A stretch of 64,000 nt of DNA from a virus (IMGVR_UViG_3300047160_005790:1-64000); one strand, 5' to 3'; counted from the first letter of the stretch, positions 45,865 through 50,306 are shown. Notes: generated from the letters alone by a model not told the origin. Program-made: numbers and translations.

Positions 45865-46065
45865 TCACATCGTCCTCGCACCGATTGTGAAAGCGATTCT
45901 GTGAACTACAAAGCATCCTTGCCCTGACACCTTTATCCAGCCGTACCCGGCATCAAATGTTTTGCCAGGCCAGAGAAGGCAACGATCGGTGCGCTCGATC
46001 TTCCCGCCGATAGCGAGCAAGAAAGTGGCGCGAGCTTCTCTAGTAATCGGCTTGAAGTTTGGCAT
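45865..46065 (-). pseudogene. Truncated HNH homing-endonuclease remnant
   Basis: CLLWPG...GYG.I.....VHRIAF is the HNH_3-type N-terminus; it stops before the H-N-H core; AT-richer; TAATG-coupled to dnaE. Confidence 0.7.
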
Positions 46066-49000
46066 TAATCTGCAAATGGGTCAATTATCCAAAGATCAGA
46101 CACATCTATTTGTCGCGTCGCTGTGTAGCCTTTTTTAACTCCTCGACAAAGCATGAGATCGTGACCGAGTCGCATGCTCCAAAGTGCTTCTCGGAACTTG
46201 GGATAGCGATACCTGTCGATCCTGAGGCTTAGCTGGTCAGTTTCGTCATCGCCGATACAAACGAGCCATTTGCTGAGGTGCGGGTCTTTCACTTCCTCCG
46301 GCTTCAGCTCGATGCCGGTCTTCGCGCGGTTGAACTCGAACAGGTCGCGTTCGTTCCGCATCTGAATAGCGCCGAGCCAGATAACCGGGATGTCTTTGCT
46401 GCGGTGATACGGCAGGTCGATTGAAACGGTGACGGGCCGCGGCACATCCTTACCGAGCTTCTTCTCTCTGATCTCCTGCTTGACGTGAGCGATAGCCTTG
46501 TCGAGCCACAGCGCGTGAAACGGATCGTCGCTTTCGCCGAAGGCTACGATGTTTTTGATCGTCTTGTGGCCGATACCCTTCACTTCGATCAGGCGGTTCC
46601 AGTCCACGTGATGTAGCTTCGGGTTGTGCTCGCCCTCGGCCTTGCGCCATTCGATGATCGAGGTGGCCGTCACTTCGCCTATGCCCGGTACCTGCGTGAA
46701 CCCGGCGTACACCTTGCCGACGCCCCGGCGCCAGGTTCGTCCGCTACGGCGGACGTTCGGCGGCACGACATCGACGGACGGCCGGTCGCAAAGCGGGTTG
46801 CCGCGAACGGCGTCGCGGATCAGCATCGCGAGCTTGTCGCCCTTGCCCTGCTCGGCGGCGCGCGTACGGTGAGCGACTGAGGCGCGACCGCCGCGGATCT
46901 TGAACATCTCGGTGTAGAAAAGCTCCGGGTGATGCTGCTTGAACCACATTGTGTGAAAGCCGATCATCGTGTAGGAGTAGGCGTGAGCAGCGTTGTTGTG
47001 ATGAACGACGCCGTTCGCGACGAAGTTGTGTTCGTGATCGAGCATCTCTAGCTCGTACACCCATTCAGTTTCGAGCCGCGCCGAAACGTTGACGACGGAG
47101 CTGATCGTTGTCGGCCTGCCCTTCGAGTCGCGCCTACGGCGTATCCCCATACCGTAGTCGAACTTCTTGTGATGGTGATTACACAGGTACATCATGTTAC
47201 TCGGCTTGTGGTAACGGGCGTAATCGCCATTGAAGTCGTCAAGCGTCAGGATATGAGCGTATTCCTCGCGACCGTGACAGGCGCCGTTCGTACCGGCATG
47301 TTCACAAACGCCCTTCGCTCGTTCGAGCACGGCAGCCTTCGCGACGCTCGCCAACTCAGTTCGTCCGTCGATCCAGCTGATATTGCCTTCGCCCGACTGA
47401 AAGCCCTGACCTTCGTACGTCGTGCGCATCGGCTGTTCGCGCTTCGCCGATGGCTGCGAATAACGATACGTCGGGTCTTGACAGATGACTTCGTCGCCCG
47501 GCTGAAGTTCGCCGAGTTCTTTGTAGCCTCGATCCGTCAAGACGCGGTGTGGCAGCGTACCGGCGAACGTCATGCCGTTTTCAAGCGTCACGTCGTACAC
47601 GATTTGCGGAACGTCGGAGCGCTTGATCGAAAGGAACTCGGCGGGCCGTATCCGGCAGTCTTCTGCCGACAACGACTGAATTTTGATGCGCTTACCGTTC
47701 TGGCCGTAGCGGAGCTTCGCGCCGAGCGATGTGTCGCTGTTGTATGCCTCCCAAAGCTCTTTGAGTGTGTAGCGTCCGTCGTGGTGTCGATTTGCCCCGC
47801 CGGTTTGTATAACGGCGTCGCCGGTTAGGCAGAATGCGTAAGAGCCCGCTGTGATGCACATGCCCCAGATTTTCGCGGCTAGCTCGTCGCCCATGTCGGG
47901 GTGTAGCTCGCGGGCGCCTTCGAGCGCGAGTTCCCACTTGCGGTTGAACGCCTGCTCACCGATCTTACGGCTGATGATGCGTCGGACTTCGGCGCGGTGC
48001 GTCCAGTCGAAGTTGAAGATCTCGCCGAGAATGCGAAGGATCTGCTCCTGGTACACGATCTGGTACTGTGTGTTCGCCGTGATCTTTTCGAGCGACGGGT
48101 GAATCAAGTCGGGCTTCTTGTTGCCGGCTTTGATGTCGATGTACTCGTTCGCGGCGCCGTTGTGAAGCGGGCCGGGGCGCGCGAGTGCGTTTACGTCGGC
48201 GCACTCTTTGAAGCTCGTCGGCACGAGTGCGCCGCAGATATATCGCATCGCGCGGCCTTCGAACTGGAAGACGCCGAGGCAGTCGTTGACTCGGAACCCG
48301 GCGAGCGTGCGCTCGTCGTCGAGCGGGATGTTGTACAAATCGTCGAGCTTCCAGCCCATCTCTAGGCGGCAGTTGTTCAGCATCGTCATGTTCGACAGGG
48401 CGAGAAAGTCGAGCTTCAAAAGACCCTGCTTCTCGGCGTCGTACTTGTCCATCGACACGACTTGCTGTACGCCTTCGTCAGTCTTGCGCTCGTAGACGGC
48501 GCACACGTCGGTGATCGGGCCGGTCGAGACGACGATGCCCGCGGCGTGTACGCCGAAGCCGCGATAGTTGCCTTCTAGCTCCATGGCGATGCCGAGGTTC
48601 GGATGTCGCTCGAATACGCCGCGCGCCGTATCGAACGTCAGCACAGTGTCCTCGATCGTCGCCGAAGCGCGCAGGTCGCCGCTCGACCGCTCGATCAGCA
48701 CATTCTTGACCTGGTCTACCTCGAACTTCGGGATCTTGTACACGCGAGCCACGTCGTCCAGCGAGTTCTTGGCCTTGTAGCCGGTGAACGTTCCGATGTT
48801 CGATACGCACTCGTCGCCGTAGATACCGGCGAGGTACTCGCGCACCTGGTAACGAGTTTCGCTGTCGAAGTCGATGTCGATGTCGGGCAAGTCCTGTCGG
48901 CTCGGGTCGATAAACCGCTCGAACACCAAGTCCTCGTACAGCATCGGGTTGACCTCGGTAATGCGAAGTAGCCAGCAGGCGAGTGAACCGGCGCTACTGC

Positions 49001-50306
49001 CGCGCGCGGGGCCGACGGCGATACCGCGACCTTTGTCGCCGTGGTCCTTCGCCCAGCGTATCGCGTCGCCGACCACCAGAAAATAGTCCACGAAGTCTTT
49101 GTCCTCGATGACCTCGCACTCGCGTTCAAGTCGCTCGCGGTACCGGCGCTGCTCACCCCGAGGTAGGCGGTCGCAACGCCGGTATCGCCAGCCCTCTTCG
49201 AGCAAGTGTCGCCAGTATTCGACCGGCGTGGAGAACTTATCCGGCAACGGGAAGCGAACCATAGGCAGGATCGGCAGTTCGACGTTGCAGCGGTCGTAGA
49301 TTTCTTCGGTCGAGAGTACGGCCTGTACGGCTTGCTTCTTCGTGAGGCCGGTCGCTTGTAGCTTGCGCACCACCGAGGCGTCGTTCATCGGCGGGCAGAG
49401 GTTCGCCGCGTAGCCCCAGTCTCGCGCTTGCTCTTCTACGGTGTGCTTTCCGGATCGGACTGCGTGAAGTACCTGCTGTAGCTCTTTCTCGGTAGGCATT
49501 GTGTAGTGGCAGTCGAATGTTGCGACAAGAGGAATGTGTAGTTCCTCGCTAAGGTCCGCAATAAGCGCATTTGCTCGACGGGTCTCAGCAAGCTCCGGAA
49601 ATGCCTGTACTTCCAAGTAGTAGTTACCGTTGAAATTTGCCTTAAAGCGACGAGCAAGAGCCTTCCCTCGTTCGTAGCTCGCATCCTTGGGGGCCACAAG
49701 CTTGCCTCCCACCAAGGATGTGAAGAGCGCTGAACCTTGACAACCGGATAGCACCACCAGGCCGTCGCGGTGATCGCGCAGCATGCTCCAATCCGCCGTA
49801 GGTTCATAGTAGTAGCCCTCCGCGTAGGTTCGGGACACGAGGCGTAACAGGTTGTTGTAGCCGCGAGGCGTCGAAGCGAGCACCGTGAGGTGGTTCTTAC
49901 GTTGCGTAGCTTCCTCGCCGATTTTGCCTGTGTACAGCTCGACGCCGAAGATCGGCTTGACCCCCGCCTTCTGAGCAGCCTTCTCTAGACGTACGTGCGA
50001 CGAGACGTTGCCATGTTCGGTCATTGCGAGCCCGCGCATGCCTAGCTCAGTCGCTCGGCGAACGTGAGCTTCCGGCAGCTGGTAGCCGTCGAGGTACGAG
50101 AAGGTACTGTGATGGTGAAGCGACACGAAGGTCATCTCACGTGAGCGGTTCGGCAGGCGCCGCGTCGCACGGTCTTTGCGAATCCACGGATACTGTTCGT
50201 GCTCGCACTCGCCGTCGCGATGAACTTCGATACGAGTCTTGAGGCTGTCGAGGCTGTCATCGTGCGTAAGCGTGCGTGTGCGACGCGGTGACGTATCAGT
50301 CGCCAA
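46065..50306 (-). CDS. dnaE: DNA polymerase III alpha subunit with intein (start TTG 50306 or ATG 50135)
   Basis: PHP motif LHHHSTFSYLDG; GPARGSSAGS; PDIDIDF; GVHAAG; KLDFL; ALARPGPL. Confidence 0.97.
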   Translation of the reverse strand: MATDTSPRRTRTLTHDDSLDSLKTRIEVHRDGECEHEQYPWIRKDRATRRLPNRSREMTFVSLHHHSTFSYLDGYQLPEAHVRRATELGMRGLAMTEHGNVSSHVRLEKAAQKAGVKPIFGVELYTGKIGEEATQRKNHLTVLASTPRGYNNLLRLVSRTYAEGYYYEPTADWSMLRDHRDGLVVLSGCQGSALFTSLVGGKLVAPKDASYERGKALARRFKANFNGNYYLEVQAFPELAETRRANALIADLSEELHIPLVATFDCHYTMPTEKELQQVLHAVRSGKHTVEEQARDWGYAANLCPPMNDASVVRKLQATGLTKKQAVQAVLSTEEIYDRCNVELPILPMVRFPLPDKFSTPVEYWRHLLEEGWRYRRCDRLPRGEQRRYRERLERECEVIEDKDFVDYFLVVGDAIRWAKDHGDKGRGIAVGPARGSSAGSLACWLLRITEVNPMLYEDLVFERFIDPSRQDLPDIDIDFDSETRYQVREYLAGIYGDECVSNIGTFTGYKAKNSLDDVARVYKIPKFEVDQVKNVLIERSSGDLRASATIEDTVLTFDTARGVFERHPNLGIAMELEGNYRGFGVHAAGIVVSTGPITDVCAVYERKTDEGVQQVVSMDKYDAEKQGLLKLDFLALSNMTMLNNCRLEMGWKLDDLYNIPLDDERTLAGFRVNDCLGVFQFEGRAMRYICGALVPTSFKECADVNALARPGPLHNGAANEYIDIKAGNKKPDLIHPSLEKITANTQYQIVYQEQILRILGEIFNFDWTHRAEVRRIISRKIGEQAFNRKWELALEGARELHPDMGDELAAKIWGMCITAGSYAFCLTGDAVIQTGGANRHHDGRYTLKELWEAYNSDTSLGAKLRYGQNGKRIKIQSLSAEDCRIRPAEFLSIKRSDVPQIVYDVTLENGMTFAGTLPHRVLTDRGYKELGELQPGDEVICQDPTYRYSQPSAKREQPMRTTYEGQGFQSGEGNISWIDGRTELASVAKAAVLERAKGVCEHAGTNGACHGREEYAHILTLDDFNGDYARYHKPSNMMYLCNHHHKKFDYGMGIRRRRDSKGRPTTISSVVNVSARLETEWVYELEMLDHEHNFVANGVVHHNNAAHAYSYTMIGFHTMWFKQHHPELFYTEMFKIRGGRASVAHRTRAAEQGKGDKLAMLIRDAVRGNPLCDRPSVDVVPPNVRRSGRTWRRGVGKVYAGFTQVPGIGEVTATSIIEWRKAEGEHNPKLHHVDWNRLIEVKGIGHKTIKNIVAFGESDDPFHALWLDKAIAHVKQEIREKKLGKDVPRPVTVSIDLPYHRSKDIPVIWLGAIQMRNERDLFEFNRAKTGIELKPEEVKDPHLSKWLVCIGDDETDQLSLRIDRYRYPKFREALWSMRLGHDLMLCRGVKKGYTATRQIDVSDLWIIDPFAD
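46995..47831 (-). mobile_element. 279-aa intein with HNH endonuclease domain
   Basis: Block A CLTGDAVI, block B TLPH, HNH C..EYAHI...N...LCNHHH..FD, C-terminal VYEL...NFVANGVVHHN; flanks rejoin as SYAF|NAAH. Confidence 0.92.

Follow-up and report, generated by a model that had tools for sequence, protein, structure and literature searches.

To our knowledge, the need for a Cys, Ser or Thr as the first residue of the C-extein (position +1) is treated as universal for inteins. The same requirement is what chiefly limits scar-free intein tools. The +1 side chain is required in steps 2 and 4 of splicing, and type A bacterial intein-like (BIL) domains, which lack it, undergo splicing or cleavage all the same (PMC4031507); the background from which a sequence-only reading of the present locus had started agrees with this source. 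As far as Dassa 2004 and Aranko 2013 are relayed in PMC4031507, type A BIL domains splice by attack of an alpha-amine on the thioester, with much accompanying cleavage. In the full-text literature we found splicing of this kind described for BIL domains only, and no description of a true intein without a +1 nucleophile.

A related element is already catalogued: a 2025 survey of actinobacteriophages (bioRxiv 10.1101/2025.01.02.630785) enters the intein of Gordonia phage Wojtek (gp72, cluster DV) among the class 1 HNH inteins. The site string that the supplement of this survey gives for Wojtek is ...TACAGCTTC↓AACATCGCT..., i.e. an F↓N junction (the arrow marks a junction between extein and intein, or the point of insertion). 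The words nucleophile, asparagine and C-extein are absent from the main text of the survey, and the anomaly at +1 is not discussed there. Here we describe an intein at the same site in the window, the 64,000-nucleotide stretch of a soil phage that was analysed (IMGVR_UViG_3300047160_005790:1-64000), together with the family to which it belongs and the ways in which its host polymerase might mature.

Results

An intein followed by Asn in a phage polymerase gene

The soil-phage record that contains the window has 88,284 bp and is rated complete by CheckV. Its dnaE-like gene (Table 1) encodes a protein with PHP, DNA_pol3_alpha, finger and HhH domains, in addition to Intein_splicing and a weak HNH match; the Pfam E-values for the DnaE-type Pol III alpha domains are 3e-67, 4e-36 and 3e-31. 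The catalytic PDIDIDF motif is intact, and its aspartates are invariant in the alignment of homologs. Profile searches of the 88-kb record returned a single PF07733 match and no family A or B polymerase, and the dnaE-like gene is the sole DNA polymerase found in it. The true start of this gene is probably the ATG at 50135 (M58), since the homologs begin at that Met. Note that the TTG lies 57 codons upstream of the Met used by all homologs, and the extension (50133-50306) is probably untranslated.

In the translation of 46065..50306, the insert runs from Cys826 to Asn1104, counted on the full frame, and its junctions read ...AGSYAF↓CLTGDAVIQ... and ...FVANGVVHHN↓NAAHAYSY. The insert matches the Pfam Intein_splicing model with E-values of 2e-9 (protein) and 4e-12 (genome). 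Its AF2 model (pLDDT 75) has the HINT fold and matches solved mini-inteins at a Foldseek probability of 1.0, the top matches being the DnaB, RecA and RadA mini-inteins (TM up to 0.91 on the target). Of the features that define class 1 inteins, the HINT fold, Cys1, TxxH, the His-Asn end and the in-frame insertion into a conserved motif are all present; the exception is position +1, which holds Asn in place of Cys, Ser or Thr. The intein ends in ...HNFVANGVVHHN279, with His277 as the antepenultimate residue, where the canonical relatives carry Ser or Thr, His278 as the penultimate and Asn279 (46995-46997) as the terminal one. The Asp position of block F is Glu.

Table 1. Features of the dnaE-like gene and its intein, in window coordinates.
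Feature	Position	Strand	Basis
dnaE-like DNA polymerase III alpha gene	46065..50306	-	one open frame, 1413 codons from TTG
N-extein (PHP, palm, thumb, most of fingers), end ...ITAGSYAF	47832..50135	-	translation, Pfam, alignment
Intein, 279 aa, HINT splicing domain with inserted HNH nuclease domain	46995..47831	-	Pfam, AF2/Foldseek, profiles
Block A, CLTGD; Cys1 at 47829-47831	47817..47831	-	Cys1 invariant in 16/16 F↓N inteins
Block B, T92-L-P-H95 (TxxH)	47547..47558	-	His95 invariant in clade and canonical relatives
HNH nuclease core (C176...E190-x-x-H193...N212...C217-N-H-H-H221-K)	47154..47306	-	alignment, profile matches
Blocks F and G, WVYELEM...HNFVANGVVHHN	46995..47063	-	alignment, Pfam model end
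+1 residue Asn (AAC), native Asn of the DnaE F-N-x-x-H motif	46992..46994	-	translation, contigs, alignments
C-extein (end of fingers, HhH, C-terminal domain) and stop codon	46065..46994	-	translation, Pfam, alignment

The junction lies between Phe and Asn

The sequence-only reading had set the insert at 46992-47834, an interval that contains the intein and takes in one extra extein codon on each side; the exact limits are those of Table 1. The junction strings that it reported, and the codons CAT CAC AAC AAC GCT, are borne out by the translation and the bases. Its assignment of Asn to +1 is likewise confirmed by the bases, by other contigs, by the end of the Pfam model and by the empty site. 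Six intein-less homologs read ...SYAF-NAAH... unbroken across the site, and the last position of the Pfam intein model on the genome is 46995, the terminal Asn. Moreover, the C-extein aligns from its first residue, the +1 Asn corresponding to Asn814 of Thermus aquaticus Pol III alpha, which lies in an NKSH motif. When a junction elsewhere was looked for, the alignments, the Pfam end and the empty site of a cultured phage all pointed to Phe↓Asn. Placing the boundaries one residue away, or having the second Asn cyclise, was rejected because neither restores the F-N-x-x-H of the intein-less alleles.

The bases were compared with Logan contigs from soil metagenomes, which cover the C-junction in three runs and the N-junction in two with identical junction codons; these runs possibly belong to one sampling campaign, and one of them is possibly the source sample. 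Where a Ser, Cys or Thr codon at +1 was searched for, the contigs of the other runs show the same AAC. The stronger argument for correct bases is conservation across unrelated samples: the +1 Asn recurs in 15 further sequences, divergent and from separate samples, one of which is that of a cultured phage finished by Sanger/Illumina sequencing. The concern that the allele might be a one-off dead mutant was not realised, and homologs place it in a clade that is conserved and has no fewer than 16 members.

Around the intein (window 46937-48060), contigs from two soil runs match the flanking extein on both sides, with mismatches. Across the joint from 46968 to 48031 they hold 234 other letters in place of the window's 1062, and they are 828 nt shorter, close to the length of one intein. 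It seems that these soils also contain, at higher depth, a related dnaE allele that has no intein.

A diverged clade that conserves the residues of protein splicing

A word-index search returned eight homologs with the same layout as the window intein, and a profile made from the nine inteins matched 153 proteins at E<1e-30 among 1.84 billion representatives; the profile hits number 4,866. Junctions were placed on the profile for 116 full-length inteins, the host motif being G-S-Y-G-F-N-K-S-H. The great majority (88/116) sit at FNK↓SH, with Ser at +1. The F↓N site, with Asn at +1, accounts for 13/116, followed by Y↓(S/T)F with Ser or Thr (6/116), G↓SYGF with Ser (3/116), and FN↓S with Ser and FN↓A with Ala (1/116 each); 4/116 have Ser at +1 and an unassigned site. 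Loci from IMG/VR added two further F↓N members (L014 and L022) and another site, FNxxH↓S. The set of 16 F↓N inteins used below comprises the 13 scored, the two from IMG/VR and P0006, which the profile had split in two.

Pairwise identity among these 16 inteins is 34-61% (median 42%); the closest pair is 61% identical in protein, and the nearest relative of the window intein is 53% identical to it. Since the inteins are too diverged for dS, column conservation was used in place of dN/dS. Only 31 columns are invariant, and they include Cys1, His95, the HNF and N motifs of blocks F and G, Asn279, the Asn at +1 and the HNH catalytic residues. As the sequence-only reading had stated, Cys1, TxxH and the terminal His-Asn are present in the window intein; Cys1, His95 and Asn279 are invariant in 16/16.

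One clear active-site difference sets the clade, scored in 14 members (13 F↓N inteins and the intein with Ala at +1), apart from its 88 canonical relatives. The antepenultimate residue is Ser or Thr in 86/88 of the canonical inteins (S/T-H-N) and His in 9/14 of the clade, the others having Asn, Met or Cys; among these 14, Ser is found only in the Ala+1 sister. The two IMG/VR members, L014 and L022, retain the antepenultimate Ser. In the subclade of the window intein, the Asp of block F is changed to Glu, Met or Ser.

The Ala+1 sister, P0029, is encoded on a 4.6-kb JGI contig (residues about 790-1070) and reads QYAFN↓CVTGD...LISHN↓AAHAAS. Its insertion point lies one codon further on and, read in this way, is a second site without a +1 nucleophile. 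We found no further members at FN↓A, and P0029 remains a single cluster. Another relative (L020:3001-3942) is inserted after the motif His (SYAFNTAH↓CVTGD...VVHN↓STAYG), and with this site counted, one intein family has at least six insertion points inside eight residues. Three profile matches at the FNK site (P0077, P0080 and P0083) appear to start with Thr (YGFNK↓T...) as against the family's usual Cys; they may use another first nucleophile or be misaligned.

The clade appears to derive from canonical inteins

A maximum-likelihood tree was built from the intein columns; no root was inferred for it, and the top matches are skewed towards the clade of the query. In this tree a single group (SH-aLRT 95) unites the 13 F↓N inteins with the Ala+1 intein and lies within a larger supported group, whose 52 inteins are otherwise mostly canonical with Ser at +1. 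There are two well-supported F↓N subclades, the window type and the Wojtek type. In a profile search of the PDB, canonical inteins are nearest (Ssp DnaB, E 2e-8), while the Clostridium thermocellum BIL domain gives no match at E<=1 and ranks 47th by fold. Because the nearest relatives are canonical and the BIL domain is unmatched by profile and 47th by fold, the loss of the nucleophile is best read as a derived state within ordinary inteins, convergent with BIL domains and with no BIL ancestry. The clade would have moved from the canonical FNK↓SH site (Ser at +1) to F↓N, two codons upstream, where the essential extein Asn would provide no side-chain nucleophile.

All finds of the clade are in phage-like contigs, and none is in a bacterial chromosomal dnaE; a pattern-limited scan of bacterial and archaeal species genomes gave canonical FNK↓S relatives only and no F↓N intein. 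The neighbours of the other F↓N members are phage-like too, with primase, ThyX and MazG genes. Because the clade is found in phage-like contigs only, the essentiality of the phage dnaE is an assumption; provided that the phage depends on a polymerase of its own, the F↓N element is compatible with a working replicase.

Homing and the cultured phage Wojtek

The intein and extein trees conflict, which indicates homing. In the extein tree the window polymerase falls into a group with 100% support, whose other alleles are four that lack an intein and one of the FNK↓S kind, apart from the polymerase that hosts the sister of its intein, and the supported branches require at least four changes of the F↓N intein state.

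Gordonia phage Wojtek is a cultured, lytic, plaque-forming phage whose gene 72 carries an F↓N intein. Wojtek is the sole intein carrier of 35 closely related Gordonia phages, all of which retain the dnaE gene; its 34 sisters are without the intein. Gene 72 minus the 798-nt Cys-to-Asn segment has 3243 nt, the length of the intein-less gene of LuckyLeo, and the two are colinear and 93% identical, with the same residues, ATYSF↓NIAHCVSY, at the site. Identity between Wojtek (L001, around 3835) and LuckyLeo (L029) is 86-90% within 100 nt on each side of the site and 95-100% beyond. The Wojtek flanks look like a co-conversion tract from a different donor, as expected after homing. The differences beside the site are mostly synonymous.

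The nuclease domain of the window copy

The HNH domain gives profile matches to McrA (6ghc) and to the HNH nuclease 5h0m, and the catalytic H193, N212 and H221 are present in the window copy and invariant in the clade. Of the four zinc Cys, this copy has lost two (C179A and C220H, giving CEHA for CEHC and CNHHH for CNSCH), whereas both are kept in 13/14 clade members scored and in 90-99% of the canonical relatives. The domain had been described as intact-looking and the element as mobile. The first description holds for the catalytic H/N/H and fails for two of the four zinc-binding Cys; as for the second, mobility is supported for the family and not for this copy, because two zinc Cys are replaced here.

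The splicing residues of the window copy are intact, while its nuclease may be in decay. Nuclease decay with the splicing residues kept is the usual late stage of the intein life cycle. Intact splicing residues beside a decaying nuclease would be a further sign of selection on the protein chemistry. Judged by all these comparisons, the window insert appears to be a true HNH intein in the replicative polymerase of a phage, one that is under selection and has been mobile in the past.

Discussion

How the polymerase might mature

From the anatomy, conservation, phylogeny and presence in a viable phage reported above, we infer every chemical step of the following scheme. Cys1 would form the N-terminal thioester, aided by the His of block B, and the terminal Asn279 would cyclise, freeing the C-extein. 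The freed alpha-amine of Asn+1 would then attack the thioester directly, restoring the native YAF-NAAH peptide bond, while the folded fingers domain would keep the Asn+1 amine beside Phe-1. The precedent that counts for this alpha-amine aminolysis is the splicing of type A BIL domains without a +1 nucleophile (PMC4031507), and by analogy with them we give it a little less than an even chance of being the way in which the window intein matures. Maturation of the polymerase probably relies on a chemistry that has so far not been demonstrated for a true intein, and the earlier proposal of either nucleophile-independent splicing or a two-piece enzyme is supported by our comparisons as an either/or.

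The antepenultimate and block F positions, the two that have changed in the clade, are those that set the rate of C-terminal cleavage in experiments on gp41-1 (PMC12245125). By analogy, the changes in the clade could represent a retuned timing of Asn cyclisation. Note that changing Thr to His at the antepenultimate position of gp41-1 nearly abolished C-cleavage (PMC12245125), and because of this the change in the clade may mean slower, not better, chemistry.

The first alternative to aminolysis is that the element only cleaves: the thioester would be hydrolysed or hit by a cellular thiol, Asn cyclisation would free the C-extein, and the polymerase would work as two chains, nicked but kept together by the fold of the enzyme itself. 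Such an outcome would have been workable straight after mis-homing, with no new chemistry. Cleavage needs Cys1, His95 and Asn279 just as aminolysis does; the conservation of these residues, equally demanded by both, counts against aminolysis to that extent, and because of it the two cannot be separated by sequence. Other evidence that counts against aminolysis comes from type A BIL domains, in which the cleavage products outweigh the spliced product, and one of which spliced only once its Tyr+1 became Cys (PMC4031507). A DnaE in two pieces is tolerated in the phages Wollypog and Ajin and in the phage encoding P0005, though the break there follows the PHP domain. However, none of the genomes in our set has dnaE divided between two genes at F↓N, a nick at this point would fall inside the most conserved motif of the fingers, and an amine held by the thioester would be expected to react with it. 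We consider cleavage alone, the main rival, possible, on the unlikely side.

Divided dnaE genes are seen in several of these phages. In Arthrobacter phage Wollypog (L002), Microbacterium phage Ajin (L003) and L008:1740-6120, dnaE consists of a PHP-domain gene and a polymerase gene, and the halves of the split actinophage dnaE are separated by an HNH nuclease gene or by small ORFs. In the phage that encodes P0005, the PHP split and an F↓N intein occur together. The Wollypog and Ajin genes were rejected as support for two pieces at F↓N, since they are split after the PHP domain, and P0069 was rejected as a naturally split dnaE: its reading frame continues open as far as the end of the contig, which merely truncates it.

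In another explanation no chemistry takes place at all, and either the precursor with its retained intein is a working polymerase or the gene is dispensable as the host polymerase replicates the phage. The termini of an intein are close together, and the insertion would be structurally tolerable. Yet no selection on the intein would then be expected, and Cys1, the block B His and the terminal Asn are invariant across 34-61% identity; in addition, the exteins are well conserved, PDIDIDF is intact and the whole Wojtek group retains the gene. We regard this explanation as improbable.

Even less probable, in our opinion, is that Asn+1 supplies the nucleophile through its side-chain amide, forming an imide-type branched intermediate that would give way to a peptide bond after Asn279 has cyclised. 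Asn+1 would sit geometrically where the canonical Ser or Cys sits, it is invariant in 16/16, and His replaces Ser/Thr near the junction. The invariance, however, is already due to the polymerase motif, as the intein-less alleles keep this Asn, and the sister intein P0029 has Ala at +1 and hence no usable side chain. A carboxamide nitrogen is also a poor nucleophile, and we know of no precedent for a carboxamide nucleophile in autoprocessing domains. Finally, a sequencing error or a recently dead allele is hardly credible, given the same bases in other runs and the Asn+1 of the 15 other divergent sequences; nothing turned up in favour of either.

Significance

A diversified, mobile clade without a +1 nucleophile occupies the sole replicative polymerase of its phages. 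If the splicing reading is true, ordinary inteins, beyond BIL domains, can ligate through the alpha-amine, and the residues altered upon loss of the nucleophile are pointed out by the comparison with canonical relatives; if only cleavage occurs, a replicase is routinely made as a nicked two-chain enzyme. Demonstrated splicing would establish a new mechanistic class of intein. We tentatively propose, as a claim slightly likelier to fail than to stand, that a natural clade of homing inteins splices tracelessly without a C-extein side-chain nucleophile and represents a fourth mechanistic class, derived from class 1 by a two-codon shift of site and a subsequent retuning of S/T-H-N. The question is directly testable, since Wojtek, whose gene 72 contains one member, is a cultured phage that is held publicly.

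Comparison with known systems

The canonical class 1 HNH inteins at FNK↓SH, which include those in the chromosomal dnaE of Yaniella, Nesterenkonia and Solirubrobacterales, belong with the F↓N clade to the same family by profile and tree, and share with it HINT and HNH domains, Cys1, TxxH, HNF...HN and the host motif. They differ in lying two codons downstream, where the native Ser of FNKSH is the +1 nucleophile, and in ending in S/T-H-N, whereas the F↓N clade mostly has H-H-N.

The cyanobacterial split DnaE intein (Ssp/Npu DnaE) interrupts the same conserved polymerase motif as the window intein, and relatives in the family of the window intein also sit at the cyanobacterial-type Y↓(S/T)F position. 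We take the Ssp/Npu element to lie two residues upstream of F↓N and to be a split, trans-splicing intein with no nuclease and with Cys at +1.

Type A BIL domains, as represented by the Clostridium thermocellum BIL domain (PDB 2LWY), resemble the window intein in the HINT domain, Cys1, the C-terminal His-Asn and the absence of a +1 nucleophile; in the window, too, His-Asn is followed by a non-nucleophilic residue (HHN↓N). Unlike the window intein, they lack a homing nuclease and do not interrupt conserved motifs of essential enzymes. Type A BIL domains are further defined by the lack of an endonuclease and by membership in the BIL sequence group, and here the window intein departs from them: HNH is present, and Intein_splicing is the sole HINT-type family that Pfam reports.

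A described counterpart is the intein of Wojtek gp72, which belongs to the same clade, sits at the same F↓N site and is followed by the same Asn+1. The two inteins are 35% identical, and the Wojtek copy, unlike that of the window, keeps all four zinc Cys.
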